Origin: Takakia lepidozioides
Lineage: Eukaryota > Plantae > Bryophyta
DNA length: 64,000 bases
Assembly: GCA_030704615.1 (NCBI GenBank)
Contig: CM060732.1
Coordinates: forward strand, 51,336,001-51,400,000
Direction: 5' to 3'
In this document: piece by piece, positions 33,812-64,000 of the stretch
Position numbering within the stretch: the stretch's first letter is position 1
How the letters are laid out: each line of letters opens with the position of its first letter
Position numbers and translations under genes: made by a program
Notes under the pieces: generated by a model
Database searches by the model: none
The model's input: only the letters and a program-made list of their open reading frames with translations
What the model was told of the DNA's origin: nothing

Positions 33812-33852
33812 GATGAGGCCAATCCCAAGGACGATCGCGTACTGAACTCTAA

Positions 33853-33864
33853 GCTCTGATACCA
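33853..33864 (-). other. Primer-binding site for initiator Met tRNA
   Basis: TGGTATCAGAGC on the minus strand, 2 nt inside the 5' LTR. Confidence 0.93.
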
Positions 33865-33866
33865 AG

Positions 33867-38640: not shown

Positions 38641-38884
38641 GCGGGCGATTGACGAAGTCTTGGGGGGATATTCGGTGGGCGCCTGTGACCGACCTCCATA
38701 CATTAATGGCGCAGTTGGGCATTAAATGTCCTCCGCCGTCGGTTTTGAACCGGGCTGGCGACACAGGGATTCCACGGTTGCTTCCCGGATACGCCTTGGA
38801 AACCTGATGCTAAACTTGGATGAACTTCTATTCGAGGCATGTACGCACACATTTGGCAAGATCTTTTTTCTTTTGTTGGGACTT

Positions 38885-42166: not shown

Positions 42167-45100
42167 TCAATGATTTCTGGAATCCCTAAGGAGGAGTTTG
42201 TGCAGCTCGTTCACGCTCAACGCCGGTGCATGAATAAAGTCATCAATAGTCACGTTCATCCTCAACCTCTTCAGGTAAATGTAATACAGATGCTTGCACG
42301 GATAATACTTCGAACCCTTCTTTGCTTCCATCAACGAGAAGTCCGTACAATTGCAAGTCGGCTCCACTCCAATCGTAATTGTGTATACATCGTCGCGTAC
42401 AGCCGAGCCGGCCGTTGCCATCCGATACATACGCCCAAGGCCGGGTGGGGGTACGTCCACGGAGCTCTGAATAGTGCAAGCCATCCCAAGAGCATTGGCA
42501 ATCCGAGTCTCATTCAACTTGTTGGGAGGGTGTCGTCTCTTCACTCTTCCGAATCGCATTGTGGGATGTGCAAAATTGTCCAATCCGTCTCTACTGGACC
42601 GAGCAGTCTGCAATGGCTGGGTCTGAGGAACCGGAAATGCGTGGGCCGGGATGTCTGTGCGTTGCACCATTCGAAATCCTGCTGCAGATAGAGCATCCGC
42701 CTCATTCTGAGAGAGGCTGCAACCCGGTGCAACAGGCCAGACGCCCGGAGGCTCCGGCATTCCCTGAATTTCGTACTTGGGCTTGCCAAATATACAGGTC
42801 ATTATGTCGTGCCTACAGAACCAAAATGTCTGCGTTGTGGCGTGAGCAAATGTGGGAGTCAAAAATCTGCCGCTGAAACAAGGTGCAGGTACAGCACAGT
42901 GTGGGTTCCTCCGAATCATCTCACCACAGTGTGCTCTCGTATCCACCCGGATGGCGCAGCACTTCCCTCGAAATGCCGGCAATGTCCTCGCAATTCTCCA
43001 CTGTGACTCCGACACTCTTGTCTCCACAATGGGAATGTTGTACAGCTTTACTACAGATGGCTCGTTATGTTGCCGGGGCACGCGCCCTGTGCTCAAAGGA
43101 GATGGCGATCTTGAACGTGCAGGACTTGCGGTGCTTGACGAGACCTCCTCGGGCAACATCACGGGACCACGAGGGAGCGTGCGAATATTCTTGTCAGCTC
43201 GCCATGAATCCTCTTCTCCGCCAGGTGCCTCGTCAAGTCTTCGTCTCACTGGACGGGTATGAACATCTCATTCCAAATGTTGGCCTCTTCGCAGCAATGG
43301 CGTGTCCCGAAGGCTCTCTCGCAAGGTCGCCGCCCACTTCCGAGGATTCTTCGATCTAGAGGCAGTCCGCATCAGCATTTCCTGCCTGTCCGGCCCCAAG
43401 CCCCACTGTTTCCCTTTCAAGAACTCGTTGTACCTGCATTGCTGCATAATTGACCTCACAATGTCCTCCGTTGTGGCAGTGAGGATGTCCACCAGATGCG
43501 CCGCAGAGGAGGCACGCCAGGAAGAGTGCACTGATTCGGCCAAGTTTGTCGTGGGCATGTCGGTGTCGGAGTCGAGACACATTTCCTGCACAAGCACATG
43601 TTGAGGTTACAAGCAAGTTACAAATATGGCCAAGAATAATATTCAACGGGACGCGAATTCGTGCAACTCACCTCCCGCATATAGTCGCCGAACTGGAGGA
43701 AACGATAATGCCACCATGCTAGCCAACTGACCATTGCTCCCTCGTCTGATTTCCTTACAGCACCTGACGATGTCCACCAAGCCCGTATACATGCAAATTG
43801 TGTCTCTGCATCATCCAAGGTGGGAGCGCGCTTCCACACAAGGCACATGGAATGGTGCTCCTCTCTGAAATCTGGCGCCACGAGCCTGGTTGTGTGCTGC
43901 GAAAGGCTCTGCAGAAAAATGGAACCCACAAGATGTCTCCTTGCCTTCCATCGGAACATTGGGGTCTTGCCCGTACACCCTTCGGATGGCAGCCCAATTT
44001 GCTTGTGCGTTGTCCGCCATGAAACCACGGAAATTCGGAGGGGGCAATCCCGCCTTGGCCATTTGTTCGTTTATTCCCTGCCAAAGAAGCATCTCCGATT
44101 GTGTGTCCTCTTCTTTCATCTCACAAATAGCAATTGTCATTAGCATCTTGCAGTGGGTGTCGTAGACATGTGCACCCATTGTCACCCACTGGTGATTTGT
44201 AATTTGCTTGATATGGTCGAACATGACCCAACTGTTTGACAAGTCCCCACTCGTCATCCGGTCGACCAGTTCGACGCCGCTGCCAGGTCCACACGTGGAC
44301 ATTTTGAATACGAAACAACGATCTGCCTCAGTCCCTTGTCCTGGAAACCTACTTCCATGAATGTAGTCATATCCACATCGTCGCTTCATCTCCAGAATGG
44401 AGTGCATATCCGAGCCACGCCCAATTTTCTGTTTGCACGAGACAATGTGGTTTCGGACATTCGGTGAACATACGTGGGACACCGACTCCAGCAATGCCTC
44501 CATTTCCTTCTCGTCGAGAGGATCTCTATCGGAGCCGTCTTCCGACATAATTCTGGCCAATGCCATCTTATGGGCGGCTTGGAGCTGTATCTGTTTGGGT
44601 TTGGCACCCGGTCTCAACTTAACCTCCTCCTGAACGAGCTGCTTTGCTTCGTGGGCAGCCTCCCGCGAGTTCCCCTCGCCAATTTGTGACAATGGGAACC
44701 AACGTGTATGCAAGCTCGGGTGAGGTCAGGGAAACGGTGCAACACATAGAACTGCTTGGCATTACAAACAGACATGCAATGTGGTGGTTCTTTGCAATGC
44801 GCACACTTAAATGTGGAGTTTGGAACCTTCTCCTGAGCTCGAAATGGTTGATGAGCTGTGCCTGTCCAATCGGTCTCATTCCTGTGACCTCTGGATTTAA
44901 AGTGGAAGCAAGTTGGGGAGAAACACCGCAACGCGCCCGCACAAACAACGTAGCGCACCCGCACACCATCGAGCATCTTCATGCTAGTGGTTTTGGTAAC
45001 GCACCAAGGATGACCGTCATGTTTTCTATCCATATCTGTCAACATTCCGGACGCCCTCGAGTAGTCCGCCCGAGGAGGGAACTCAAAGAAGATATTACCG

Positions 45101-45760
45101 TCGACGTCGGCGGGAAGGCATGTAACCGATTTAATTGCAAACTTGCTGTAGTCCAGCCCGGCCAGCTCCGACCGGTGTCCCTCCATGTGAAGCCCTCGCA
45201 GAATTTCAAGAATAGATCAAACTGCGGTGCTCGTGCTTGGAATATGACTCCCTCCTCCACTGACGTCCATTGAGGACTTGCCTGATCTCCATGACGACCT
45301 CGGAACTTCCATGACCTCGTCTGAGTCAGACAGGTTGTGAACAACCCGGTTCTCGCTCGTCTTCATGGATGGGTTCGGCTCTGGATTTACTTCGTTGCGG
45401 ACTTCTCTCTTTGAGGTAGCCACTCTCTGATTCGCGGATTGTTTCGTGGAAGGCGCCAGGATAGAAGGTGCATTTGGCGGGCAAATGAGGTCCCCAACAG
45501 CCCTGTATATGACGCTGTCCGATGGTGGAACTCGCCATTCCCTGCCATCGCCGAAATCATCGTGGAGCACAACAATACTCTCGACAACAAGGCCGTTTGA
45601 GTCCTTCCTTTCCTCCTCCAAAAAAAACCGACCCCGGTTTCAGGTGGTATCGAACGCACAGATATTTCTCCATCACCCGACAAATGTCCCCTCTGCACGG
45701 AAATGAAGCTCTATGCTCGTGAGGAGGGCAGTACACTGTAGCGCTCGGGTTTTCCGCCAT
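42167..45760 (-). pseudogene. MULE-2 transposase (DDE plus SWIM), frameshifted; intron 43586-43671
   Basis: WVMFDH, FMADNAQAN, SCGFH and TTNLAESVH (Mutator D, D, CxxH, E), plus C-terminal CNCTDF..CKH SWIM finger. Confidence 0.9.
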
Positions 45761-46059
45761 GGGAGATGTGCACACAAGACTGCCAGGATGGCGTGCGGGG
45801 AAGCTCCCTGGTAGAAGGGGGATGCAGCGATGGGAAGGAATGCGGTGCTGATTTGTCCGAGCGACGAAGCCTGATCCAAATCCAGGGAGCCAACTATCTA
45901 AAAAATCCACAGTCAGAGTGTTAATGAACCTTGTCTCCGGAATGCGGCCCCTGGTCTTTGCGTAATAACTGCCAAACGGTATGCAGTCAGAAAGTGGGGG
46001 GCTGTCCGGATGATGTCGGCTGAAGGGGAGAAGCCGGCACCGTGCCGTCACATTACTAC

Positions 46060-47710
46060 CCCCGAATGGAAATTCGGCACCCAATATCCAACAGGGGCCG
46101 CACGGATGAAGTCGTCTGGGGGCAGAGATGCCGGCACTTGTCCGACAGAGAACATCCCCTGGATGGAAATTCAGCGCCGAATTTCCATTCGGATCCCCCC
46201 AAAGGAAGTCCTATCGGGGGGTCAGGCCGAAAACTGGCCGACATAAAAACCTCCGCGGATGCAAAAATGGCGCCGAATTTCCATCCGAGTCCTTTCGGAT
46301 GCAGTCGGCTCGGGGGAAAGGCCGCCATCTGGCCCTCACATTACAACCCCCGGACGGAAATTCGGCACCGAATATACAACAGGGGAAGCCCGGATGAAGT
46401 CGCCTCGGGCGCAGAGGCCGGCGCGTGTGCGACAGAGAACATCCCCTGGATGGAGATTCGGCGCCGAATTTCCATCCGGGCCCCCCCAAAGGAAGTCGTG
46501 TCGGGGGGTCAAGCCGAAAACTGGCCGCCATAAAAACATCCCCAGATGGAAAAACGGCGCCGAATTTCCATCCGGGGCGGTTCGGATGCAGTCGGGGAGG
46601 GGGGAGAGGCCGGCACCTGGTCGTCATATTTCAAGAAATTCGGCACCGAATATCCAACAGAGCGGCGGAGAGGCCGGCACCTCTCCGACAGAGACCATCC
46701 CCCGGATGGAGATTCGGCGCCAAATTTCCATCCGGGCCCCCCCAAAGGAAGTCGTGTCGGGGGGTCAAGCCGAAAACTGGCCGCCATAAAAACATCCCCA
46801 GATGGAAAAACGGCGCCGAATTTCCATCCGAGGCGGTTCGGATGCAGTCGGGGAGGGGGGAGAGGCCGGCACCTGACCGTCATATTTCAACCCCCGGATG
46901 GAAATTCGGCACCGAATATCCAACAGAGCGGCGGAGAGGCCGGCACCTCTCCGACAGAGACCATCCCCCGGACGGAAATTCGGCGCCGAATTTCCATCGG
47001 GGCCCCCTCAAAGGAAGTCGTAAAAACCTCCCAGAATGGAAAAACGGCGCCGAATTTGCGTCCGAGGCTGTTCCGATTTGCATCTAGCAGTCAAGGATTC
47101 CAAGAAAAACGTGTCTACAAGTGCACTTCAGCCACAAAACAAATAGTTAAGTTTGTTTTTCTCCGAAAAATCAATCGGACACGCTCAGAATTACCTGCAG
47201 GAAGGTAATTCAGCGCTTCGAAATACCTGGCGAATGGAAATTCGGCGTCGAATATCCATACGCCAGCGATCCGACTTACCTGCTGGATGGAAATTCGGCC
47301 CCGGATTTCCATCCATCCGGGATTCGAATTACCTGCAGGATGGAAATTCGGCGCCGGATTTCCATCCACAAGTTTTCCACTTACCTGCTGGATGGAAATT
47401 CGGTGCCGGATTTCCATCCATCCGGGATTCCACTTACCTGCTGGATGGAAATTCGGCGCCGGATCTCCATCCATCCGCTCTCTGACCAACCTTGCGGATG
47501 GAAATCCGGCGCCGGATTTCCATCCATCCGCCTCCGAATTACCTGCGTGAGGGAAATTTGGCGCGCCGCCCTACCTGCGCGGATGGAAATTCGGCGCTGA
47601 ATTTCCATCCTGCTGCGCTCCGAATTACCTGTAGGATGGAAATCCGGCGCCGGATTTCCATCCTGCAGCGCTCCGAATTACCTCTACGTTGGAAATTCCG
47701 GGCCGAGTTC
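46060..47710. repeat. Palindrome array of MULE-2 (GGATGGAAATTCGGCGCCG[A/G]ATTTCCATCC)
   Basis: Same core as 37130-38640 but with differently organised spacers. Confidence 0.93.
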
Positions 47711-47919
47711 CGTCGATTTTCATCCGACATGGAGGGCTTCATCTGACATTTAATTGCGCAGTTGGGCAATAAATGTCCACCGCCATCCATTTTCATTCGG
47801 GCTGGCGACACATGGCTTCCTGGATACGTTCCCTAAATCTGATGCTAATCTTGGCTTAACATGCTATTCGAGGCATGTACCCCAAAAACGGAGATTTTTT
47901 TCCATTTTGGCTGGGACTT

Positions 47920-48863
47920 ATGCCGCCTGATGGGCGTGGCTCTCCTGAGAGAGACCTCACATCCAGACCGCGGCGGAAGTTGAAAGCTCTGTACTACGGA
48001 CGACGGCCAATCTCTCGCATGGCCAAACTGAAGCTCCAGCAGGAGATTCCAGTGTCTTGCTCACAACCCGCGCCAACTGAAGCCGAGTACTCTCAGGCAA
48101 GCCACTTCTGCTTTCGCTTTGTTCGATTTCGCTTTTGCTTTCGCTTTCGCTTTCGCTTTGTTGCCTCGCTTTGTTTTTGCATCTTCATCCTGGCTTCGCT
48201 GGATGAGTGAACCTTAGATAGTTGAGTGAACCTTAGATTGTTTGCAATGCGTGTGCAAATCCGGCAGCTCTGGAGAAGGCTGCTTGTGCATGTCATTCTC
48301 AGGCAATGGTTGCATTTATTTTCATTGTTGTTGCATGGCTCTCCATACTTCCTAAACTTGTTATGTTTTCATTTTTGTTACACGATCGTTGCTATGGTGG
48401 TTACGCTGCTCGTTGCGATGCTGGTTTTGGCACCGATGTTGGTTCTCACGATTTTTGGGAATGACAGAGTGACGACGAGCCCGGCACGCTGGTGGTATAA
48501 TCGACAGCTCCAACTCATCGCATGTTTGAATCGCCCAACTTGGGGCGAGAGGGCAAACTTAAACCTTTTGTTGGTGGACGGGAGGACTTGCAACGAGAGT
48601 ACGACAGAATAGGCATTGGGGAGGTTGGTGCAGGCGGCATGGCAGGTGAAGGGCGTGAGGACATGAGGACAGCAGATCCGGCAATGGAGGTTGTTGATGC
48701 ACATGCAGTAGGGCCCGCCCACGCAAAGAAAAAGAAGAAAGCTAAGCACATGCAATCCCCGGCGAGAGAGCCGTCACGGGCTGCGGAGGGGGGAGTAAGC
48801 AGTGCGCGCGAGGGTGTTAGTTTGCCTCAATCAAAGGTGGTCGTCCTGGAGGGCTCCCCTGCT
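47920..48863 (+). pseudogene. MULE-2 accessory gene, 5' part (truncated)
   Basis: MPPDGRGSPERDLTSRPRRKLKALYYGRR..EYSQ, the same GC-AG intron, then SDDEP..VVVLEGSPA. Differences from the MULE-1 copy include synonymous changes. Confidence 0.75.
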
Positions 48864-49548
48864 GCTAGCGCCATTTTCCCAGGTTGGGGCCGAATATGCC
48901 AAAGTCCCAGAACTCACTGGGCCCGGAACTAGAAAAATGGCGCCGAATTTCCTGTTTCGGTGCCTGCCTCTAAAGGGACTTAGCCATTTTCGGGGCCGTT
49001 CACTGGAAATTCGGCGCCATTTTCCCTGGTTGGGCCCGAAAATGGCTAAGTCCCAGAACTGACTGGGTCCGGAACTGGAAAAATGGCGCCAAATTTCCGG
49101 TTTCGGTGCCTGCCACTGTAGGGACTTAGCCATTTTCGGGGCCCTGCACTGGATATTCGGCGCCATTTTCCCAGGTTGGGCCCCAAAATGGCCAAGTCCC
49201 AGCTAACTTTGCCCTGATCTGGATAAATGGCGCCGAATTTCCGGATTCGGTGCCAGCCACCCCAGGGACCTAGCCATTTTTAGGGCCCTCAACTGGAAAT
49301 TTGGCGCCATTTTCCCAGGTTGAGGCCGAGAATGGCTAAGTCCCAGATCTGACTGGGCCTGCAACTGCAAAAATGGTGCCGAATTTCCGGACCGAGTGCC
49401 AGGCACCCCCTGGACAGCCATCCCCCAGGGCCCGAATTCGGAAATTCGGCGCCATTTTTCCTGGGACCACAACTAATTTCATGCGCCACATAGGGCCTCT
49501 TACATCCTGCAAATGTTAGGACTAAAAAGAAAGGTACAACATATGTAC

Positions 49549-50323
49549 CTGTACAGAAGGCGCATTGCCGCTTTGTCCGCGTTCGGCTGGTCGGTGAACT
49601 CGTGGCTCCGGCGGGCATGGGGTATCTCTTGAAAGAATAGGTCGGTTTTGTAGAGCAGAAAATACTCGTCACATAGTCGCATAGGCTCTCAGCTTCACCA
49701 GAAATCTCCAGCTTGAACTGATGTGCTTGTGTGTCAAGCTGCTCTTGCGCATTCGTTGTCACCTGTGGAGATTCTCCAACAGACCATTTTCCTCAAAAAA
49801 TACAATAAATCCATCCGATACAAGAGTAGACGCCCCAAATGAAGCGTGGGAAAGTACCTGAAACCACCATGTCATGCGGTTCATCCACATGTCGAATGTG
49901 GGGTCGGACAGTTTGTCGAGTTTGGGGAAGCTCCACATGTCCCTTGTACTTTGGGAACCATTCCAGATTTGGAGCCACCGGGTCTGTCCAACCACCCAGC
50001 ATATTAGTAAGCACCAAACACTACAAAAACGAATTGCTACCACGACAATTTGGTTAAGAATGTATAACCTTTTCTGTTGCATCCACACATGATGTGGCTA
50101 GACGATGCAGCTTTTCCAATGTCATTGTGGGCTTCAGAGCGCGGGAGTAGTGCTTCCCTACCTCCACCAGAAAATCGGCACCAAGGGCGGGATCAGCTAT
50201 GGCCACGTACTTCACCATCCGCGACTTGTACTTGATGCGGGCCTTCGCCTCCGCAGCTTTGAGATACGATTCCAGTGCCGGGAGGGTTAGTTTCTTCTCC
50301 TCTGACTCCATGTAGAACCTCCG
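49549..50323 (-). pseudogene. Accessory gene middle exons (continuation of the MULE-1 gene, now inverted)
   Basis: Joining across the TSD gives in-frame DLAHARRFYMESEEKKL. The last exon ..DKAAMRLLY-AG|GT splices in phase to AG|G-TAC-TGC (R-YCKF) at 51885 on the plus strand. Confidence 0.78.
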
Positions 50324-50544
50324 GGGGGCTGCTATTTCATGAGCGGCATGAGCATGAGCGGAAAAAAAAAAAGCATGAGCAGACCATTGTGAGTCCACGG
50401 AAATAGGGTTAGGAGGCACGGAAATAGGGTCATGTGAAGTTGGAATGTGGCACCAGTGGACTTGAAATGCAACATTTTATTGCAAATTTTGTGGCAAGCC
50501 ACGTCTATACAAGTGTGTTCTAACTGTCATAGCCGGAATGGGCA

Positions 50545-51003
50545 CTACTCTCCTACACCCTCCGAGGAACTTGCCCCACCTTCTTCCTCATCCCCCTCAT
50601 CCCCCTCATCCTCCGAGCTCTGTGATGCATCAGTTCCACTATGCCTCTCAAAAATCCCGTCCTCTCCTTGGGGGACTGTCCACCTCACCTCCTGGGAATC
50701 TTCTGCGTCTTCTCCCCCACTTTCCTCAGCAGAATCCAAGACAAATCTACGAGCCCGACGGGCTCTAATAGCTGCTGCCTCCTCCCTCATCTTCATTTTC
50801 TTGAGGCTTGCCTCGTCTAAAATCTGCTGTACACGACTAGGTTCGAAACACCTCCTAATGGACACCGAAGCAAGCCGGGCAGCATAAGTAGGAAGGATGT
50901 ACTCCCTTTCTGGACTAGGCATGAAATCCCCCCTGGCAAAAAAAGGCACGTTCCTCCTGCCCATGAACTCCGGTGTAGACGTCCCTCCAGCAGTACTTGG
51001 CAT
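50545..51003 (-). CDS. Small ORF or exon with acidic C-terminus next to the MULE right TIR, function unknown
   Basis: Open frame MPSTAGG..FFARGDF..YAARLAS..RRFVLDSAEESGGED.., preceded by an acceptor-like TTACTGTAG. Confidence 0.45.
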   Translation of the reverse strand: MPSTAGGTSTPEFMGRRNVPFFARGDFMPSPEREYILPTYAARLASVSIRRCFEPSRVQQILDEASLKKMKMREEAAAIRARRARRFVLDSAEESGGEDAEDSQEVRWTVPQGEDGIFERHSGTDASQSSEDEGDEGDEEEGGASSSEGVGE

Positions 51004-51129
51004 CCTACAGTAAGAACAAATCCACTTCAAGAATGTCAATACCAGCACAACTAGAAAGGGTTTTCAATGAAATAAGAGAGCGGAGGGAGGTGCCTCACGA
51101 AATCTGGAGGCAACTTACAATGCCACCAC

Positions 51130-51510
51130 TCACTCGTAAACCGGGGGCTCCTCGGCCTCGATCCCAACTTCCTCCCCCTGCTCCTTCTCGGACTTTTCCT
51201 CATCCTCCGAGGATGCCTCTTCCCCTTTCGGCAGACGTTCAGCCGCTGCAAGTTCCGAGTTGTGGAGGGCAATATCTGGCTCGAAGGCGAACACATGCCT
51301 GTCGGACAACGTCCCTGCCCACATTGAAGCACCTGAGGAACAAAGCGGGCGGTTAATAGCTTGCGGCATGCAATTGCAATCGGGCCAGGGGACAAACTGA
51401 TCACGTGAAGGCTTACCCGTGCCGCATGTGAGGTCCAGAATCCGCCCTTGGACATCCGAGCACGTCTCCATGAGGGTTTGGATGAAAGCAGGGCTCCGGG
51501 TCCGGCTGTT
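51130..51510 (-). pseudogene. Accessory gene C-terminus: SAM-binding motifs X-I-II of a beta-class amino-methyltransferase-like domain
   Basis: Splicing intron 51333-51416 gives RSPAFIQTLMETCSDVQGRILDLTCGTGASMWAGTLSDRHVFAFEPD, then an acidic tail and stop. Confidence 0.78.
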
Positions 51511-51884
51511 CCAGTGCAGGGCCCCGAAAATGGCTAAGTCCCTACAGTGGCAGGCACCGAAACCGGGAATTCGGCGCCATTTTTCCAGTTTCAAGCCCAG
51601 TCAGTTCTGGGACTTAGCCATTTTCGGGCCCAACCAGGGAAAATGGCGCCGAATTTCCAGTGAACGGCCCCGAAAATGGCTTAAGTCCCTTTAGAGGCAA
51701 GCACCGAAATAGGAAATTCGGCGCCATTTTTCCAGTTCCGGGCCCAGTCAATTCTGGGACTTAGCCATTGTTGGCCCCAATCTGGAAAAATGGCGCCGAA
51801 TTTCCAGTTCCGGGCCTAGTCATTTTCATTCCCTAAAATTTACCTCGTTCCCAGGACCTCATTCTGTGTGTTTCTTGAATGCAG

Positions 51885-53008
51885 GTACTGCAAGTTCTCC
51901 CTTTTGGAGAAAGGACATCTGTCCTTCGAGCCGCCATTCTTCCTCGCATGGAGGAACCCTGGGACTAACTCCATGTACACTGACGTTATCGTGAAGGAGT
52001 GGCATCTGGAACATTTGCGCGACTGCCCTTGGTATGTGGACCTTCCGCCCGGCTCGCTCAACCCATCCAAGTTTCAATTGAAGCTGGATGCTGAGGCTCG
52101 ACGAAACCAGGCTCCGCTGCCTCCGCTGGGTCCAAAGGAGGCGAGAGCGCTTGCCCAGTCCAGGAAAGCGGCAGAGCTTGCTCAGGCAGGTATTCAAGAG
52201 AAATTGAATGAGAAGAATAAAGGACAAAAGAAAAGGACACGGAAACAGGGGAGTACAGTAACCCCCAAAAAACAGAAAACCACCGGGGCACCAGAGGAGG
52301 CGCAGGAGGGGCCCCAAGGGAGTGACTCTGACGACGACTTTGTGCAAGGTCCTGCAACTGCTGCTGCTGCTACCAAGTCCCGGTCGTCCGGTTCCCAAGT
52401 CAGTTTGGTCTGGGATTGGCTCTGCCAAGAAGTTGGCATTTGAGGCCGAGCCTACACGGCGGTATTCGGCGGTGACGTTTCCGAAGAGGCCAAAGCTAGA
52501 ACCCCCAACCATCATCCAATGTGTCAATGAGAGCTTCCTTGACGCTCTGGCTGCCAAGGCGAAGAAGGTGGCACACAGCAAGTCTGTGGAGGAGCAGAAG
52601 GGGAAAGCCAAGAAGAGGGCTCCGAGTACAGAGCCTAAAGACACCCCTGGTTTCGAATCCATGATGGAATTCTTCACGGCTGTGAGCACGGATTGCAAGA
52701 GCACTCGGGGTGGGGTTGAGGTGGAGAGAGCCTGCGATATGATTCTCCTCGATATTCCAGATGGGGAGCTGCTGGAGGGCCTGGATGGTGTGCCCACCTG
52801 GAACAGGTTTACTGAGGACTACTGGAGAGCCGGGTTTGGGCTGGCGGGGATGCTCCTGGATGACGGTGGATGTATGGTGGTCCTTGCCACAAGAGGGAAG
52901 ACCACAGACAATGTTGTGGCAAGGTGGACACCGAAAAGTGTCACCCCGGTCCTCCTCAAAAAATGGTTCTGCATCAATACGCAGGGGTTGCGAACTGAGG
53001 GCCAGAGT
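51885..53008 (+). pseudogene. Accessory gene long exon with MTase motif-IV-like CDMILLDIPDG
   Basis: YCKFSLLEKGH..WYVDLPPG, a Lys-rich linker, a frameshift near 52390, then CDMILLDIPDG (about 52734-52765), VPTWN and LLDDGGCMVVL. Cut by retro copy B at 53090. Confidence 0.7.
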
Positions 53009-54959
53009 ATAAGTTATCAATCTTTTGCATTCACTTCATATTGTGGTGTATCTGAACTAGACCCTGGAGTTGATCCTTCTTTTGTTGGATGTCAAGTTAT
53101 TTTACCACTAGTGTGAAACTAGCTAGAAAATAGCTAGCTTTTACATATTGACATTTTGGATTGGCCCAAGTGTCAATCCAGGGGTCAAGGCAGATTTAGG
53201 CCCTGGAGTGGTTATCTTCACGGCAAGCGCGGGAGGCTCATCTTTCTTGAGTTGAGCCTCACCGCGCCTAGCTATGGCGCCGTAGTGTGGATTCCCCATG
53301 GCGTGGGGTGCACTTGGCTTGACTTGTATTTGAGTGATGAGGTTATATATGCATGAGTTTATGCTTCAGCTTTGTGAGCTCGCATGAGCTTGTGCTTGTA
53401 TTCTTCTTCGTTATCACTCGAGAAAGATCAGCTCGAGTCTGTGAGTGCCAGGTTCGAGTTGTTTTGTAGCACTTGTGTTTTCATGAGAAGCAGTTCAGCC
53501 TAGAGTGCAGGGATCCGTGCATGAGCCTATCCAAAGTGGATAGAGTGCAAAGGCGAACAGGTTTGCAAGTTTGCAATGGATAGAGAGGCGGGTAGCCTAT
53601 GTTGAAGAGCGGCGTTGCATAGCTCAACGCTATGGCAACCAAGTTTGGGCTTCTAGTGTGAAGCGGGGAGATGCTGGTCTCGAGTGGGTGAACTGGTGGT
53701 CGTCTTCTTTTCAGCTGCAGGCCAAGTAAGAAGCTGCAGCAATGTGGAGCTACGAGGGTGTTAGATGTAAGTCATAGTTATCGGGAGCTCCAACTTCAAG
53801 CTCATAAGGAGGATATGAGTGAGAGAGATGGCTGATTTCTCTTGTATGCAAGCCAATGCATTTGTGCTATGTTGAGTTTGGGGGTTTCAATCTGAAACTC
53901 CAGCGGTATGAGAGCTCTTTGCCATGGCAAGAGCGTGCTGGAACAAGAGCTAAGAGGTGCGGCAAGGCCATGGAATGTGCACCTAGGGTTTCAGAGCTTG
54001 GAAGAAAAGTTCTTGGCACCACAATAGGAGTTCTTGTGGCTGGAAATGTAAGCCTTAGGGTTCAGGAGCTTGGCAAGGGCTGTGGAGTGCTTAGTCTTGT
54101 CTTAGAGAGCATCAAGGAGCCAAGATAGGGGGCTGATATCACTTGTGTGAAGAGGTGCATTGTGGAGCATGTATTCAGCTCATTGAAGCTTCCATCTTCA
54201 AGCTTGAGGGCAAGCAAGGAAGAGGAAGGGCTGACTTCCCTTATGTGGGGCAAGGCATGTGTGGAGCATGCTATCAGCCTGGTAAAAGCTTGCACTTTCA
54301 GGTGTGGGAGTGCAAGAAATTAAGGAGGGGCTGGTTTCCCTGTAGGGCTGTGGAGCATGCTTGCAGCCTGTTGAAGCTTGTATTTTCAGGTTTGTGTGGT
54401 GCAAGAAATGAAGCAAAGGAGCTGATTCTCTTATGCTGAGAGTGGGGCATGTGTGGAGCAGGCCTTCAGCCCATTGAGCTCTTGTTTCAAGCTTTAGAAA
54501 GCTAGAACGGAAGGTCTAGGGCGGTTTCCACTTGGAGTGAAAGAAATCACTGTAGGGCCTATGTGAGTTGGGGTTTCAACTTCAAGCTTGAAGGAGCGCA
54601 ACTCTTGAAGCAATCTGGTGTAGGGGGCTGGAATAGGCTCTAAGAAGAATGCTATGGCCAAGGAGAGTGCTTGAATGAGTGCTCACAAGGGCTGGTAACC
54701 AGTAGGGCTTGGTTGTTTGCCATTGAGTTTAATGCGTGTTGGGGAGGCTAAGTGGAAAGAAGGCTTGGTTGTGGCAACCACCTTATGGCTTAGGGCTACT
54801 ATGGTGGTGTGTGGGAGCCGAAAGAGCAAGAATACCTTGCTGATTTCCTCACAGCCGCCATAGTTCGGTGGAAGAGAAGCTAGAGTCCAAGAGACCACAA
54901 ACCCCTAGCTTGGCATGGCTAAACCATTGGAGAATGGCTAAACTGCCAGAGCGGCCCAT

Positions 54960-56060
54960 GGATGGGCTGTGATGGGCTGTCCCTGTGGCCTTGGGGCGAT
55001 GCCGGTGGCCTTCGGGGCTGTGACGGCTGTGAGGGGCTGTGGCGGCTGCGCAGGAATAGGTGGGCCTTCAGGGCTGTGACGGGCTGCGAGGGGCTGTGCC
55101 GGTGGCCTTGGGGGCTGTGTACGGGCTGTGAGGGCCCTGTGAGGGCCTGTGCCTGTGGCCTTATGGGGCTGTGACGGGCTTGGAGGGCCGGTGATGGCTG
55201 CGCTGGTGTGGACCTTGGGGCTGTGATGGGCTGTTAATGGGGCTGTGCCCTGTGGCCTTTTGGCTGTGAGGGCTGTAGATGGGGCTGTCACGGTCTGCGC
55301 CAGTTTTTTTTTTGGGGGCTTTGTGGCTGTGACAGCTGGTGACGGCTATGCCCTAGCCTTTGGGCTGTGCTGGGCTGCGCCGGTGCTTCAGGGCTGTGAC
55401 GGGCTATGCCGGCTGTGCCGGTGGCCTTCGGTCGGGTCTTTGACGCTGTGACTGGCTGTGACGGGCTGCGCAGGTGGCCTTGGGGGCTGTGATGGGCTGT
55501 GAGGGCTGTGCCGGTGGGGCCTTTTGTGGCGTGACGGGCTGTGCCAGTGGCTTTTGGGGTTGTGACGGGTTGTGACGGGCTGGGAGAGGCTGTGAGAGGC
55601 TGTGCCCGTGGCCTTTGGGGCTGTGAGGGACTGTGACAGCCCGTGCCTTAGCCTTTGGGGCTGTGAGGGGCTGTGTCAGGCCGTGCCTGAGGCCTTTGGG
55701 GGCTGTGAGGGGCTGTGACAGGCTGTGCTCGGTGGCCTGCGGGGCTGTGATGGGATGTGAGGGGCTGTGATAGGCTGTGCCCCATGGCGTGGGGCTGTGA
55801 CGGGCTTAAGGGGCTGTGACAGGCTGTGGCCTATGGCCTGTGGGGCTTGTGACGGGCTGTGACACGGCTGTGCCCAGTGGCATGTGGGGCGGTGACGGGC
55901 TGTTGCTGCTGTGACAGGCTGTGACAAGGCTGTCCCTATGGCTTGTGGGGCTGTGACGGGCTGTGACAGGCTGTGGCGCTTTGGGGCTGTGATGGGCTGT
56001 ACAGGCTGGCGGCATGTGGGGCTGTGACCCTGTGACCTGTGGAGGGCTGTGGCCTATTGT
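54960..56060. repeat. GGGCTGTGA minisatellite in retro copy B
   Basis: Same unit as 23360-24000, but the tract is longer. Confidence 0.92.
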
Positions 56061-59000
56061 GGGCCTTGCCTGTGGTCCTGTGGTGTCCCGTGTTGACCCG
56101 TGGATGCCTTGCTGACTCGTTGAGGCACTGGTGGACTGCCTAAGGACTGGCATGTGGTCTTGAAGGCCGAATTTTGAAGCTCGTGGAGGGCGGTTTGAGG
56201 AGTATCTTCATGATATTTCCCATGGTCATGCATAAGGGAAGAGAGGAGAGGAAGAGGGTGGATGAGGGCATGCTGGGGTTAGCATTGCTTTAGTTTCTTC
56301 TTCCTCGTAGTTTCACCTTCTTATTAGGCCAAGACCTTTCCGTCGTGGAGGCAAGAGTCAGTCTGGGTTTGGGCTGGGGTGTCTTTGCAGGAGTCAACAC
56401 CGTGGAGTTGTTTTTGTGTGGGGGAGTTGTCGTTCTGATTTTCTTGTGTTTGGATCCCCTCCATACCTGCATCTTGACTGTTCGCCATGCTAGTTTTGTG
56501 TGGGCGCTTGTTTTTTATAGGTGATTGGGTCCGGATTTGATCACCGGCCAGTCCTAGAGCATGCTGTCGATGGTGAGGCTGGGGTGATGACCAGCCAGAC
56601 CATCATTGTTTCTCCTGTGGTGAGGTTGGAGGTGATGACCAGCCAACCATAGGAGTGCTTGCGATGGATGCAGGTATAGGTGTAGGCTATGTTAGGAACT
56701 TAGTATTCCAAACCATAAGCCGCAACAGGTTCTCTACCCGGTTACCTTATGGAGAGGGGGTTAGGGACATGTTCATGCCCGGTTGAGTGTCAACAGAGGT
56801 GCCACTAGTTGCGGGGACAGTGCCGGTTCGAGCACTAGCGATACTAGTGGGTACACGAGACGAGGTGTGTGGTTTAGGCCACCTTCACCTCCTGTGTCTT
56901 CTACGGAAGGTTCTGATTCGGATTGTGAATCAGGAGGACTCATACTGGCGGTGCAAGTGTTTCTTTGCCATTGTTGTGGGACACAATTGAGGAGATGTAT
57001 GGAGCTACCAAGGGGCCACGAAGGTACTCTGGGGGCGGTGGGCACCATCGAGTTGGATGATTTTATCCAAGAGTTTGATAGTTGGTGTGATTTGTATCAA
57101 ATGCCCATCCACAACTATTTACGCCTTTCATGGCATGGAAGGGGCTGTTTTAGCACCTTGAGGGGCCGCCTAGGATGATTACCATGAGTTCAGGCGGGGG
57201 CATGAGGTTGAGATCGAGGAGGAGGAGTGGAGGATGTACGGGTCACCCGACTATGTCCTTATCACTAGGGGCACTAGAGCCACGAGGGCAATGGCTATAC
57301 CTGCCGCTGCACCGGCAGCTTCAGCAAGTAGTAGTGGGACTAGTGGGACTGGTGGTACAGTAGCTACGACGTCCACCCAAGCCACTACCGCACCAACACT
57401 AGTACCCGTGCCTGCCTTCAACCCTGTTGTGGAGTTCTTCGAAGAGTGAGAGGGAACTACCAAGGGGTGAGGACAGAGAAGTTGCGGAGCTGCAAGAGTT
57501 CCAATGGAAGCCACCGAGAGCTTGAGGGAGGCTTTCACTCACATGAGGCTTGATAAATGTAACCCAAGGGGTTACGGAAGCTCAGGCAGTCCAATTCTGG
57601 TATGGGATATTGGACAAGGAGCTAAGGAGAAGGGTGCGGGATGCAACTCTCCTACAAGCGGCCCAACCCACCTTAGCAAATGTGTTTTGCTGGCAGTGCG
57701 GATAGTAGAGCTCAACATGGTGGAGGAACGAGTGGTTCATGGTGGGATTTGCTAAGGAGACACCACGGGGTGGTGTGGGCCTCCTAGCCAACCCCTACCT
57801 CAATGTGCTCAAGGTGACAAGAGGGCTCAGATGAAGCTCAGGGAAGGGCAGAGAGGACCTCAGATGCAGGGGTTCTCTCCTTCATTTGCTGGCCAACAAC
57901 ACGGGCGATGTGGTGTGCTGGACATGTGGAGGACCCCATGTCAAGAAAGATTGCCCAAACGGAGGCAAATGCACAGCCTGCACAGTTGCAGTGTGGGCAT
58001 TGTGGCAAGCACGGGCATGGAGAGGCCCAGTGTTATGGTTTGCATCCTGAGTTGTGCCCAGGCCAGTGTCCAAGGGAACAATGGTGGCCGGGGGCAAGGT
58101 GGAGCAGCCCGAGAGGACGAGGTGGCCAGCCACGAGGTGCAGGCCAAGGGGCAAGCTCAACATGGCAAGGACGCGGAGGTCAGGGTGTTGATCAAGGCAT
58201 GGCCAACCGCTTCAGCAGCTAGAGCAGGAGGCTCGCTGCCATGGCTACAGCTCAGGTGGTACGGCTCTAAGGCCGGATGGTCCACCTCCTGCTCCTGAGG
58301 GATGAGATATGGGAGGCATGGGATTCATTGTGGAGCGCACTACCACTAGTGCAGGTGGGTCTGCTGCAGCCGTGACTCGAGGAGCAGCACGAGTTCCTGA
58401 GCCACGAGGTGCAGAGGTGGAGTTGGATCCACAGCGTGGGGCGGCAAGCCGTCAGGCTAGCTTCCTCAGTCATTCACATTGCGGAGACAGTGTCGACGCA
58501 ATCCATGGCACCTAGTCTTGCCCGACTGTTACCGAGGCGGAGGGTTACTATGCCATTGGGGAGAGCTACACGTGTAGCACCAATACCTAGTGTTGCCAAG
58601 GCTACGGCAGCCAATGTGCTGCTAGGAGCAGCCACATCTGTGTGCCAGGCTCCATTGTTCTCGGCTACCATGATTGCGACGCCGGGAGTAAGACTAGCTG
58701 AGGTGTTCAGGTTGGCAGCTACACTCTGTGAGAGTGGGGAGGTTACTTCATCTTTTGTGGAGATAGTGGGAGGTGTACTGCCGGAGGGATCCTCGGATTT
58801 GAGGGTCAAGACTGCCACGGCGGCGCCATGGCAAGTTGCAGCTACCAAGTTGATGGAGCTGCCAGCTAGGCCAGCCATTGAGCGCGCCATGGTGACACCT
58901 GGAGTTGTCATGTTAGACAACCAGGATGGCATTTTATGTTTGAGTGGACCGGCAGGCAGAGATACCGGCCATTGCGGGTCTTGTTGGACTCGGGAGCTCA

Positions 59001-59656
59001 GCCACTGATGCTGGGCAAAGCTGCTATTGCAGGCTTGGGCCTCACGGAGGCGGATATGGAGCCTTGTCCTTTCCAGATACAGACGTCTCTGGGAGGATCG
59101 GAGCAGGCTCGGGGGCATGACAGACACTCCATGACGTGAGTTGGTTATCAGACTACGGCCGGATCACCCTACAGATGGCTCAGTGATGCGACCAAGGGCC
59201 ATTGTGACAAACGCGGTCTCATACGACTGCCGGTTGGTGGGGCAGTGTTGTACCCCATGGGCTTCACCCTGGATTTTTGGGAGGAGTCCGCGTCCTATAG
59301 TGCCTGCATGGCGTCAGTGGGGGGAGGGCTGGCGTTTGCAGCTCCTGTGACGTTTCATAGGAGGAGTTGCGGTTGCCCACCGAGGCAAGATGCCGGAACT
59401 AGCAGCATTCACTATCGGCAGTGAGTTGGCCTAGAGAGTTGCTTGAGGGCCAAGTCATTCAGAGGATGTGCCCACCTGGTGAGAGCAGGATGGACATGTA
59501 TGGTATGGCAGAGTTGCCTACCATGGTTGCGCAGCTCCCTTGTGGAGCACGAGCAAGGATTTGCAAGCGGGATGCTGATAGAAGGTGCCACAGCTGGGTG
59601 GAGGCTTTGTACCGTCAGGAGAGGAGGAGAGTGTGGGGGATTGCACCAGGACCACT

Positions 59657-60610
59657 GAAGGCATTTGTCTTCTTGACTTGTTTAGCGGGATCAACACCGG
59701 ATTGGCTGCTGTGTTACAGGCAGTGTACGAGTTCAGCGTTACCTTGTATTAGAGGGATGAGACTGCACGACGCGTTTCACTTCGCCATGTTGCTCAGTTG
59801 GTGCAGCGTTCCCTGAGTTGTTGTCGGTGTCTGCAATTCGTGGATATCAGCAGGCCTTGCTAGCAGACATTTCGTTGCTGGGGGCGCAGGATTTGGAGCG
59901 GGTTGGCTCCATTGATCTGGTAGTGGCAGGTTGGCCCTGCCAGGGCATTCATCAGCCGGCATGGTAATGGATTGCGAGACTCGAGGTCGGGTCTGTTTTG
60001 GGAGATGGTGCGGGTTTTGCGCCACTTGCAGCTTCATCAAGCTGTATCTCCAGCATACATCTTGGAGAATGTGCCACTGATGGGTGATTCTCGGGCCAAG
60101 GTGATGGCCAGTGTGCATCAAGTCCGGTCATGGCGTGGGTCAGGAGTGTTGCTAGATTCAGCTACAGGGGGTCACGGGCTCATCGTCCACGGCTATGGTG
60201 GACTAACTTGATGCCACCCGCACTGCTCAAGCGTGCATTGATGGGGTGCAAGCGCCAGCACATCTCACAGTGGATAGCATTATGGACACAGGAGGCAGTC
60301 TCAGCGTGTGAGACACGATGACCGTTCGCCTTTGGCAGTGGTCAACAGGGTGGGTCAACCACGAGCAGCACTACCTACACCGCTCAGCTTCCCAGGATCG
60401 CATGCTATGTGGATAGTGGACCTGGCCTCTTGTGGGATGCTCAGTTGAAGCAGTTAGTGGAGCCTAATGCTGACGAGCGTGAGCGGGCAATGGGTTTTAC
60501 CACTGGTACCACGGCGGTGTCGTCTCTTTTCTGAGGCATCACGTCGTCAAGTGTTGGGGCAAGCAATGGATCTCAACTTCTTTGACTTGGATTATCAGCT
60601 TGGCTCTGGC
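59657..60610 (+). pseudogene. C5-cytosine DNA methyltransferase domain (DNMT3-like) within retrotransposon pol, frameshifted
   Basis: Motif I LLDLFSGINTG (59669), III ADISLL, IV IDLVVAGWPCQG (PC at 59935-59940), RSGLFWEMVR, VI ILENV (about 60065), VIII AHRPRLWWTNL (about 60178), IX PNADERERAMGFTTGTT (about 60465), X RRQVLGQAMDL (about 60542). Confidence 0.9.
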
Positions 60611-63600
60611 TGAGCAACGCCAGTGCGGAGTAACTTCCCTCGATGGTCTCTCTGCCTACTGAGACGATACAAGCAGTGAGTGGGGGCGAGCATGTGAGGA
60701 CCACGGGGTGCATTCATCCATGGCACACGTGGGAGGTGCTCGAGGTTCAGAGGGAGTTGGCAGCCAAGGCGGCTGTGATGGATCAGATGAGATTGGGGAT
60801 TCTTCTCGGGTTGAGGAGGTCCTCAAGGATGAGATGATGGGGCAGGATGAAGCCTTGTCATTGACTGAGCAGGCAGGGAGTACTGCTCAAGAGGTTGCAC
60901 ATAGCAACCACTGGACGCGTCCTCTACCTCTAAGCCCACTGGACTTAAGGTTGTAGTTACGGAGGACAATTGGGAGGCTGACATTGGACCCATTGTCACC
61001 GGAGGAGAGAGACGACGTATACGGCGGTTCCTGAGGGCTCAAGGAATGCTTTTGCTTTCAGTTTGAAGGACTTGGGAGCACTGAAGGGTCAAGAGATCCG
61101 TATTGAGTTGGCCACTAACACGCCAATCTTTCGGAGACCCTATAGATACAGTGACATGGAGAGGTCTTTGATTCAGATGAGGACTCAAGATCTCTGGGAG
61201 GCAAGTTTGGTGGAGCTCTCTGGTGGAGAGTATGCTTCAGCCACAGTGATGCCAGCCAAGAAGGATGTCTATGGCAAATGGACGGAGAGACGTACGTGCG
61301 GTGATTACCGGCCTGTAAATCGTCAGACCAAGTCCGATAAGTATGCCATGCCAACACCAGAGGAGATCTTTGATGCCATCGGGCATGCTAAGGCCTTTAG
61401 CACTTTGGATTTACGATCCGGATATCACCAGTTGCCAATCAAGGAGGCGGACAAGCAGAAGACGGCATTCTGGGGGATCAATGAGCACGGCAAGGATTGC
61501 ACGGCATTCTGGGGGATCAATGAGCACGGCAAGGATTGCGAGGCGGACAAGCAGAAGACGGCATTCTGGGGGATCAATGAGCACGGCAAGGATTGCGTGA
61601 AGTGTGCCACGGCCCACACTGCAGCTAAGCACTCTCCCTCATATGAGTTGTACGTATCCTCTGCAGCGTTGTTCGAGCGGCTAGCATAAGCCACTACAAA
61701 CGCTCTTCCCTCATCATCACCTGTGTGAGCACCGCTCCAAGCCCCAGCATGCTCCAATCCGTAATGCAGCTGAAAGGGACGCCCCCTGATAGGTCGTCAA
61801 AGATAGGCGCCGAGGTCAACCTCGCCTTGAGCTCTTGAAAAGCTCATTCCGCTCATCTCCCACTGCCACTCATGGTCCATCTTGGTCAGCTTGGTTAAGC
61901 CTTTGCAATGGTACTAAATCCCTTGACAAACCGTCTAGAATTAGTTTGCCAACCCCATGAAAGCTCGACCGGCTCACATCCGTGGGGCGTGGGATCTATG
62001 TGCAATGGCCTCTACCTTTAGTCTGCTGTACCACCAATCCTCCAGGATATTCATGTGACCCAGATACTCAATCTGGTTGTGGAAAAACTTGCACTTCCTG
62101 GAATGCAACTTCAATCCGTGCGCTCTCAAGCGCTCCAATACCACCTGAAGGTGTCTCTCAGGCTCCTCCACGTAACACTAAGATGATGATGTCATCTATG
62201 ATAGAACCGAGCAAAGTCCACCCCTGCTAGAATATATCATGACTCTCGAAACTCTGCAGGAGCATTCTTAAGCCCAAATGGTAAGAACCGCCACTGATAT
62301 CTTTACGGCAATCTTTTCACCCTTGTCACATATCACCAGCCACTCAAGTGGTTGATGGAGTCAGACAGCTTACGGGAAAGCTTGCACGGTGGGCACTCAT
62401 ACTAAAGGAGTATGACTTTCAAGTTTGCATCGACCAGGTTTGGTCAATCGGGATGCGGATGGATTGAGTCGCAATCCATGCATGAGCCAGCAGGATGACA
62501 CTGGAGCTCGGTGGCATGGTGAGTGACGTACGAGGAGCGGAGATGGTGTCGGGATGGCACGCATCTGCATTTTTTGTGTATCTTGCATCGGAGGCCAAGG
62601 TTGGACCTACAAACAGGGATGACTGTAGACGGAGTGTTGAGGACCCTGAGGCTAGTGATGAGCCAGGTGGTGCCAGAGATATACATAAGGATTCGGCTGT
62701 GTTGGACTACCTCCGCACGGGAGACACGGCAGCCACTGTGACTGCCAGGGAGAGGGATCGGATCCTGCAACGAGCCAAGAGGTTCAATTGGGAGGGGACA
62801 CCTACTTCGAGTGTGGGAGGATGGTCGGGGTGAGGATTGTGCATCACCCCACACAGCGTGCACGGTTTGTGCGGCATGCCCATGAGAGAGTTTGGGGCAT
62901 TTGGAGTGCGACACACTCACAGTTATGCAGGCGGGGCAGTATTGTGTGGCGTTGGTATGCATACAGAGTGTGCTGTTGCAACAGTTCGTGGCTAGGTGCA
63001 TGGGGTGTGACAGGGTGCGTGCTTCATTCAACCGCCTTACACCACAGTGCATCCTTACCACTCATGGGATTGGGCTACAGGTGGAGTCTTGACTTCGCAG
63101 GACCGTGGCCACTGACTATGCGCCAACACAGATATGTGTTGGGATGGTGGAGGCATTCTCCAAAGGATTGAGTTGGTTCCATGCCTGATAAGGCTAGTGA
63201 GGGTAGCTACGTATGCATTCTTGGATTGTGTGCTTAGCCGATTTGGTGGTGCTACAGCTGAAGTAGTAAGCACGGACAAGGAAGAGTTCTTGGGGGAGCT
63301 GAGGGGGGAAGGGGAGGGAGCTCAGGCTTTGTGGGAACAAGGCCTTTGATAGAAAGGGAGCTCAGGCTTTGTGGGAACAAGGCCTTTGATAGAACGCACC
63401 ATACTTTCTTCTCTTTGGCCGAGAGCCGGATTTGCCTACATCCATTCGCAGAGAAGCTGCTCAAGTCCTAAACCTTGATGATCCGGACGTGTGGGTACGT
63501 GCATGTGATCAGCGTGCAGAGTTGTTCAAGAAAGTCATGCCCATGGCTTTTGAGAACCTTGCAATTGCCCAGCACCGTGATACGTTGAGGTAGCCACTAT

Positions 63601-63864
63601 ACGTGGTGGAGGATATCGTCCTTGTTCGGAGGTTTAGCCCTGGTGACTATGTTTATTTGCAGTAGACTGCTCCTACGACTCTGGATGTTACTGCAGGGCG
63701 TGTATTCTGAGGGTTCAGAGGTGTTGCCCTCAGGAGTCCTGATCTTGGAGGGTCGGGATGGCATGACTTGGAAAGACCATGTGCGTAATTGTGCGCCATG
63801 TCACCTTCCCATTGTCGATGGCAGAGTTGACCCAAACTTGGCAGTGGTACCTGCAGGTTTGAGG

Positions 63865-64000
63865 TGCATGCTCTGTGGGTCTGCCAAAGAGGCAGCCACC
63901 ATGCTGGTGTGTGATCGATGCTCAAGGGGTTGGCATATGGGATGCTTGACACCACCTCTTGAGAAGGTTCTTGACGGAGATTGGTTTGTGTCCACACTGC
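63865..64000 (+). other. PHD finger (C4HC3) at the end of integrase
   Basis: CMLC-GSAKEAATMLV-CDRC-SRGW-HMGC-LTPPLEKVLDGDWF-(+1 nt)-CPHC. Confidence 0.88.

Follow-up and report, generated by a model that had tools for sequence, protein, structure and literature searches.

The described system most similar to the element reported here is KnitGypsy-Dnmt3 of Klebsormidium nitens, a Gypsy retrotransposon carrying an unpermuted DNMT3-like cytosine methyltransferase domain (hereafter abbreviated as DNMT) under purifying selection, which its describers regard as having been acquired within the lineage of K. nitens (de Mendoza et al. 2018, PMC5890265). According to the accessible parts of that publication, its DNMT lies in the same ORF as reverse transcriptase (RT) and RNase H (RH; peer-review file, PMC5890265), its repeats follow a DIRS-like layout of the form A-coding-B-A-B (legends of Fig. 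4c and Fig. 1e), and an assay in yeast gave no methylation, a result called inconclusive by its authors. Other retrotransposon-borne C5 methyltransferases include SymbioDIRS-Dnmt3, which according to the same parts of PMC5890265 methylates CG de novo in yeast, and the EpiLTRs, in which the available portion of the preprint describes a DNMT paired with a chromatin reader (bioRxiv 10.64898/2026.05.21.726589). How a retrotransposon might profit from a cytosine methyltransferase of its own has been an open question from 2018 onwards, one reason being that genetics is lacking in the known hosts (dinoflagellates and Klebsormidium).

The window, that is the whole stretch of 64,000 nucleotides of Takakia lepidozioides DNA that was analyzed, holds a decayed member of an old family of Gypsy retrotransposons that shares with KnitGypsy-Dnmt3 both the Gypsy domains and the DNMT. 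The element starts at 53090, ends in an integrase with a PHD finger and runs past the window end; its order of gag, protease (PR), RT, RNase H and DDE integrase (INT) is that of Gypsy elements, as claimed by a first-pass annotation made from the sequence alone, and gag, protease, DNMT, RT and RNase H are collinear with Marchantia proteins in tblastn searches. On the forward strand, the left end is formed by the 5' terminal repeat A (TGTCA...CA, 53090-53416), at which similarity to a second copy begins and which shares TGTCA with relatives; contig loose ends from sequencing runs of the host lineage accumulate at both ends of this repeat (53090 and 53415/53416). There follow a candidate self-priming primer-binding site (53417-53432, complementary to 53236-53251 within A at 14/16 positions by eye), a long 5' internal region (53433-56760) with 102-bp and (GGGCTGTGAC)n tandem arrays that is possibly a decayed antisense frame, a frameshifted gag with CCHC knuckles (56906-58250; 60% to protein P0129 over 335 residues, zf-CCHC E 0.1), a frameshifted aspartic protease with the LLDSG motif (58838-59377; alignment and PF13650, E 0.008) and the DNMT itself. 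Downstream lie the 5' part of RT (60971-61560; Pfam, alignment and tblastn), with a 39-bp tandem duplication at 61462-61539, the 3' part of RT with RNase H, inverted on the reverse strand (61598-62300; Pfam and tblastn), and, again on the forward strand, the RNase H end, a linker and the frameshifted DDE integrase (62298-63790; tblastn with ORF2 of locus L005 and the integrase of L022), single pieces of which gave no Pfam match, and finally the PHD finger at the integrase C-terminus (63865-63987; PF00628, E 2.3e-9).

Contigs of all four runs compared join 61500 to 62300 on opposite strands, indicating that the inversion of RT and RNase H is confined to the window copy. (The 39-bp [61462-61600] and 40-bp [63315-63394] tandem duplications, like this 700-bp inversion, are private to the window copy and reflect either real decay or assembly error.) The 56500-64000 region recruited 52,958 contigs in run X1, 22,316 in X3 (same sample) and 980 in X6, with 30/30 bins covered; these figures are not copy numbers, and they show that the host genome contains many diverged copies of the region. 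In X12, which we guess to be an RNA run, contigs left 60014-60515 without coverage. A second copy of the family lies within the window itself (21492-25244, forward strand); it is truncated at its 3' side and has no DNMT, retaining repeat A (21492-21818), the self-priming site (21819-21834), the tandem arrays and the start of gag. The 102-bp (34-codon) repeats, found at 54060-54950 on the reverse strand and at 22500-22900, could represent a decayed antisense frame in both copies; two antisense pieces of the 5' internal region had no Pfam match.

The DNMT of the window copy occupies 59657-60623 on the forward strand, as established by translation, Pfam, tblastn and a frameshift-aware alignment with the intact relative P0022 (65% identity over 313 residues), which carries the domain slightly beyond the 59657-60610 initially annotated. 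Six-frame translation places motif I (LDLFSG) at 59672, motif IV (GWPCQG) at approximately 59929-59946 by counting, motif VI (LENV) at 60062, motif VIII (RAHRPRLWW) at 60175, motif IX (ERERAMGF) at 60475 and motif X (LGQAMD) at 60554, hence in the canonical, unpermuted order, after the LLDSG protease and before RT, exactly where the first-pass annotation had situated them. It had also attributed the absence of an open frame to frameshifts, and the alignment to P0022 counts about 11 of these, besides a stop codon that interrupts motif II. In a comparison with PF00145, the check it had proposed, single-frame pieces match this family only below its curated cut-off (E 0.002 and 0.27) and five of the seven have no Pfam match; the frameshift-aware alignment scores 916, against 34-37 for five shuffled sequences and 33 for the reverse strand. 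Breaks per kb are as frequent in the DNMT (11.4) as in gag (11.7) and in the 3' part of RT with RNase H (17), the 5' half of RT having 2.5; it is thus the entire copy that is dead, not the DNMT alone.

The type of the enzyme was evaluated on intact relatives, in which both sequence and predicted fold show the family DNMT to resemble DNMT3 more than it does DRM or the bacterial enzymes. The best solved-structure match of an intact relative is DNMT3A, collinear from motif I to motif X (E 3.6e-11), and the family profile compared with the PDB gives 1.3e-19 for DNMT3A, 1.3e-6 for HaeIII and 2.8e-4 for DRM2, DRM being matched only via its C-terminal part with motifs I-V; phage enzymes match the family DNMT at 22-28%. 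Folding of a single sequence reached a pLDDT of only 33, and an alignment-based model of the DNMT domain of the intact relative L003 (pLDDT 91.9) was used instead. In Foldseek this model has DNMT3A as its top match (E 4.8e-20, TM 0.73, 23% identity), with only DNMT3A, B and C among the matches listed, and the Atlas model of a Calypogeia protein agrees (TM 0.76). The earlier reading of the domain as DNMT3-like rather than a permuted DRM is consequently upheld. The unpermuted catalytic domain is common to the family, the host plant DNMT3 (PpDNMT3a/b) and mammalian DNMT3A, with which the predicted fold also agrees; unlike these enzymes, the family DNMT has no DUF3444, PWWP or ADD domain, is intronless and is embedded in a polyprotein (cf. 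the accessible text of PMC6453930).

To obtain an unbiased measure of DNMT presence, 60 metagenome loci were fetched by RT alone. With at least 1.4 kb of upstream sequence, 36 of 37 such loci carry the DNMT in the same place, mostly 1.35-0.36 kb before RT; at a threshold of 600 bases the count is 40/44, the four loci without DNMT having upstream DNA that is unrelated or made of inverted repeats. These loci are not independent, most belonging to one clade that groups with a Sphagnum protein and four sets being repeat views of the same insertion. Carriage is family-wide rather than a one-off. Searches with proteins broaden the distribution: a 95-residue piece of the window DNMT retrieved 19 longer proteins, 13 of them named Marchantia polymorpha (59-73% identity), and a Marchantia DNMT region retrieved 57 proteins, including those of Calypogeia fissa, Sphagnum fallax, Monoraphidium, a Chrzof1 model (read as Chromochloris) and, by look-up, Hariotina; proteins named Closterium and Mesostigma are further, more distant relatives. 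In chlorophyte-type relatives the DNMT is located downstream of RNase H and upstream of integrase, in the RT frame, whereas streptophytes have the order PR-DNMT-RT. (Chlorophyte-type relatives are P0040-P0061 and P0063, from Chromochloris, Hariotina, Monoraphidium and others; P0058 has a G-patch and P0041 a Tudor domain after the PHD finger. P0064, with its DNMT before RT, lies on a very long branch.) A scan of viral contigs with P0004 gave two pattern matches and no relatives, and the candidate relative P0102 was rejected as a low-complexity chance match.

A conserved stop separates the DNMT from RT. Unbroken proteins of Marchantia, Calypogeia and metagenomes comprise gag-PR-DNMT and end 70-99 residues past motif X in the clade of the window, or 84-162 residues past it in sister groups. 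In the RT-selected loci, ORF2 begins one codon after the end of ORF1, in the same frame and with a single stop in between. Among the 54 loci checked (6 of the 60 lack the DNA concerned), 48 hold the junction, after subtraction from 50 pattern matches of two judged spurious because they lie in inserted DNA; its codon is TAG in 36, TAA in 11 and GAG in one, so that a stop is present in 47/48 loci, whereas no other codon is a stop in over 35% of loci and the rate across all codons is about 1%. At the aligned position the window reads TAG-CAA-CCA (60902-60910), with the TMV-type CAR-YYA context; this is the only TAG-CARYYA among the 66 TAG triplets of 56800-64000, and five TAG-CARYYA sequences occur in the whole window on both strands. 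Env-like readthrough in SIRE1 and the division between gag-pro and pol in Ogre are familiar precedents, from which the family differs in that its stop follows the protease and DNMT domains instead of closing gag or pol.

UAG-CAR-YYA is the TMV readthrough signal, for which the available part of PMC2754532 gives 6-10% readthrough in stable plants. The likeness to this signal is that the in-frame stop is succeeded by CAA-CCA in the window and by CAA-CCA/CTA in the clade of L005; only four of the 48 loci, besides the window, have strict CAR-YYA at this place, and most loci of the moss clade differ from the TMV context in reading CAA-CCC. We consider it probable that ORF2 is reached by readthrough of the conserved stop. 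The same anatomy would also fit with ORF2 being expressed from its own transcript, by splicing, or by reinitiation just past the stop; the CAA-CCC followed by an in-frame ATG in 42/48 loci, and the joining of the two frames in some Marchantia gene models (P0003, P0014 and P0020, all automatic predictions), lend this some credit. We regard this alternative as unlikely, if credible, given that the ATG is not conserved (GTG in L005, L006 and L008, CTG in the window) whereas the stop and the ensuing CAA-C are, and that both ORFs are exactly in frame with one stop between them. Since in relatives the gag-PR frame closes with the DNMT and a stop follows before RT, the enzyme is likely to be made at the level of Gag, not of pol, whichever route leads to ORF2, as judged from the arrangement of the frames. 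The initial proposal that the enzyme would be packaged with pol is not supported and needs revision.

Quick phylogenetic trees (SH-aLRT support only, no bootstrap, partial rows left out, neither host DNMT3 nor Klebsormidium sequences included) place the window DNMT in a clade of 16 rows with all named land-plant rows (support 99), comprising proteins of Marchantia, Calypogeia and Sphagnum, and its RT-RH in a clade of seven rows with Marchantia (support 99). In both trees the chlorophyte-type rows are grouped in a separate clade (94 and 99), and Closterium and Mesostigma stand apart. The simplest reading of these trees, which are without host DNMT3, is one old capture of the DNMT that was later relocated within the element. 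Two captures, in chlorophyte and streptophyte elements separately, or horizontal transfer could instead account for the two positions of the domain (PR-DNMT-RT and RH-DNMT-INT), and the deep branches of the quick DNMT tree are without resolution. All 60 element DNMTs, which have family-specific segments in common, nevertheless lie on one side of a branch with support 100 that separates them from six phage enzymes (with no host DNMT3 in the tree), and the same groups appear in the DNMT and RT trees, leaving multiple acquisition or transfer a doubtful option by comparison with a single capture.

The DNMT is under purifying selection in the family. Comparison of the window with the main clade gives a pN of 0.20, with pS saturated in 17/17 pairs, and that of the main clade with L005/L006 a dN of 0.28 and a dS of 1.9; between lineages, the protein is kept while synonymous sites are saturated or near 2, and the dN of the DNMT (0.24-0.28) compares with 0.13-0.26 for RT plus RNase H, values biased downward by the codon filter, with 219 of 327 window codons mapped. 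Among copies of the main clade, dN/dS is 0.52 for DNMT, 0.44 for gag, 0.49 for protease, 0.29-0.40 for RT and 0.32 for RNase H.

We lean towards a function in which a DNMT made in bulk and borne by the particle would methylate new cDNA before integration. ORF1 would encode Gag, protease and the DNMT3-like enzyme up to the conserved stop, with readthrough at a low rate giving RT, RNase H, integrase and PHD; the DNMT would be packaged in large numbers in the particle, released by the element's own protease and act upon the cDNA ahead of integration, perhaps with a preference for CG, as the analogy of DNMT3A and SymbioDIRS-Dnmt3 suggests. New copies would then arrive methylated, and either pass as host DNA or stay quiet, and the PHD finger would guide target choice; the release by protease, the pre-methylated arrival and the PHD-guided targeting are steps that we infer. 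Amounts at Gag level would not be needed everywhere, considering that chlorophyte relatives have the DNMT in the RT frame. Against methylation of cDNA stand the absence of methylation by KnitGypsy-Dnmt3 in yeast, the dN/dS of the main-clade DNMT, which exceeds that of RT (0.40 and 0.29) and RNase H, and the pattern of CpG depletion, which is not specific to the element. The CpG value is 0.53 in the element, 0.34 in a host pentatricopeptide (PPR) gene and 0.88 in the chromovirus; we rejected it as a sign of self-methylation because the host gene is more depleted, and the element is not singled out.

Instead of cDNA in the particle, the active enzyme might have as its substrate the chromatin of integration sites, other copies in the genome or RNA. 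The integrase does carry a chromatin reader, the PHD finger, and the substrate was left open by the 2018 paper in the parts accessible to us (PMC5890265); yet a Gag-fused domain would be placed in the particle together with the cDNA and the predicted fold matches that of DNMT3, which acts on DNA. Both points are still compatible with action after nuclear entry, and we hold a substrate other than particle cDNA to be a minority possibility. Quite improbable, in our judgment, is retention of the domain for DNA binding or for a structural role (e.g. holding the palindromic junction described below) with methyl transfer being dispensable: such a role would agree with the negative yeast result of KnitGypsy-Dnmt3 (PMC5890265, accessible parts) and the lack of a CpG signature, but the SAM-binding motif I, the catalytic PC/EC-Q, ENV and the arginine pattern of motif VIII are all retained in 66 of the 78 near-full domains compared, which span chlorophytes to mosses and include redundant entries. 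Finally, the idea that a host DNMT3 pseudogene was inserted once, in the window copy, may be set aside as having virtually no probability, for the frameshifts throughout the domain and the lack of DNMT in the second window copy (which is cut off in gag) are outweighed by the identical position of the domain across the RT-selected loci and in three named land-plant genera, by the equal decay of gag and RNase H in the window copy, and by the absence from Pfam scans of relatives of DUF3444, the mark of host plant DNMT3 (PMC6453930, accessible text).

The ends of the elements depart from the usual LTR arrangement. At their 5' end, relatives have repeat A (~340 bp, TG...CA), and at their 3' end either B-A-B or B alone (B being 113 bp, TG...CA), with B preceding A at none of 13 5' ends; two identical LTRs, one per end, were thus not found among these elements. 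This is the A-coding-B-A-B layout of KnitGypsy-Dnmt3 (PMC5890265, figure legends), and the family probably belongs to the same lineage. No protein named Klebsormidium appeared among the protein searches with the family DNMT, and a profile search aimed at Klebsormidium and host DNMT3 returned five proteins only, which is weak evidence of absence. Differences from KnitGypsy-Dnmt3 lie in the host, here a land plant, and in the stop that separates DNMT from RT in 47/48 loci and the window; chlorophyte relatives do have the DNMT in the ORF of RT and RNase H. The accessible parts of PMC5890265 make no mention of a PHD finger, self-priming, target duplications or a junction palindrome for KnitGypsy-Dnmt3.

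The TG...CA ends of relatives are accompanied by target duplications. Duplications of 4 bp surround the first A and the last B in 8/11 rows, or 7/9 distinct insertions once L003 (its contig ends in the repeat) is dropped and L019 and L022 are merged (the 3' end of the window element lying outside the window); they include taca, aagg, atta, cata, tgtg and ttca. A polypurine tract lies directly 5' of the first B and the primer site directly 3' of the first A in relatives. As deduced from L012, L016, L019/L021/L022, L024, L032 and L053, together with positions 53090 and 53416 of the window, the B/A junction reads CA-GC-TG inside a GACAGCTGTC palindrome, while the A/B junction keeps two bases from the side of the polypurine tract. 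The B/A junction motif terminates the loose ends before 53090 in run X1 (25 contigs, with an agreement of 0.48) and in X6 (2 contigs), though not in X3 or X12, and those after 53415/53416 in X1 begin like B. The bases after the first A are complementary to A over 9-16 nt in 8/13 loci, the remaining 5/13 having no complementarity of 8 nt or more, and the primer site of the second window copy is complementary to A at 16/16 positions (fold z -6.8). Self-priming Gypsy elements of the Tf1/Tcn1 type likewise have a primer site complementary to the 5' repeat and situated directly after it.

From these features we infer that B plus A would constitute the working LTR, that reverse transcription would be self-primed from the site after the first A, and that integrase would open the cDNA at the palindromic B/A junction. 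The split repeats resemble a 2-LTR circle opened within one LTR, but none of 13 5' ends shows the mirror product, A-B-A. That the A...B form arises separately, as an integration product in its own right, is disfavoured by L031 (B) and L032 (B-A-B), which share the same 3' flank in spite of their different form, suggesting that B-only ends may be secondary, by B-B recombination or assembly collapse. An element with DDE integrase and split repeats needs an integration route, and we found none described; in the full-text literature searched, subscription papers aside, such repeats with a DDE integrase were found only in the 2018 legend (PMC5890265, accessible parts). DIRS elements use a tyrosine recombinase instead. 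The broader scenario, in which a single Gypsy lineage extending from chlorophytes to liverworts and mosses carried the DNMT through most of the history of Viridiplantae and moved it from the RT frame to the Gag frame before a leaky stop, with land-plant particles loading the DNMT in bulk and delivering pre-methylated cDNA, and with the DDE integrase opening the B/A palindrome to give DIRS-like split repeats missed by LTR-finding pipelines, is tentative, its parts together being possible rather than probable.

The first-pass annotation knew of no characterised case in an embryophyte, and neither land-plant nor chlorophyte Gypsy elements with DNMT3, nor the conserved stop, were found in the full-text literature searched, subscription papers (e.g. 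the Marchantia genome paper) aside; the suggested novelty in land plants stands in this respect, not in that of sequences, for annotated proteins of Marchantia, Calypogeia and Sphagnum already hold the domain. That annotation missed the chlorophyte relatives and the split-repeat ends in common with KnitGypsy-Dnmt3. Land-plant copies are unmentioned in the accessible parts of 10.1101/363937, PMC9516144, PMC10952607, PMC11244446, PMC8616336 and PMC6453930, and two later papers (PMC12344493 and bioRxiv 10.64898/2026.05.21.726589) say only 'streptophytes' in theirs; their supplementary trees may include land-plant copies already. EpiLTR DNMTs are described, in the available portion of that preprint, as sister to DNMT4, with DAM and chromodomain. 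The family lacks a chromodomain, and in the RT tree it is widely separated from the Tf2-like element that the window also contains. Membership of Phygy or Selgy was rejected on account of the self-complementary primer site and of target duplications that are not NCGN: the accessible text of PMC6317226 gives tRNA-Trp and NCGN target sites for Phygy, tRNA-Ala and ~5 kb for Selgy, and lists an extra domain for neither.

At least 13 annotated Marchantia polymorpha proteins contain the domain, several in unbroken gag-PR-DNMT frames, which renders its activity, substrate and readthrough testable in a model plant with methylation mutants. Mp_8g17980 and Mp_4g09160 are examples of Marchantia copies with a naturally unbroken DNMT domain. 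Transposon copies add to the PF00145 counts obtained for bryophyte genomes, and a large repeat family of this kind may be missed or misfiled because it is without paired LTRs.

The window contains other features of interest. An intact, intronless PLS-E-DYW pentatricopeptide gene of 775 aa (11297-13624, reverse strand; CpG 0.34), predicted to encode an RNA-editing factor, points to an RNA-editing land plant, in support of the host type initially proposed; Marchantia is not known to have PLS-E-DYW genes. The protein collection searched does not contain this PPR protein, and Atlas places it no more closely than Streptophyta. The Tf2-like Gypsy element (27625-34592, reverse strand) is young, with 729-bp LTRs 97.7% alike and a gag-PR-RT-RH frame of 1044 codons, and is nested in another repeat. 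A decayed non-LTR retroelement occupies 14400-17600 on the forward strand (RVT_1, E 1e-7), with a C-terminal stretch resembling a zinc finger and endonuclease. A large repeat is present twice (25327-27623, 34601-36952, 41378-45995 and ~37100-52800), with frames of 200-420 codons that match no Pfam family except for a weak SWIM finger (42170-43267); it has tandem arrays of 96 bp and 53 bp and inverted repeats of 140-170 bp (48868-49153 and 51510-51796), and is possibly an undescribed DNA transposon.
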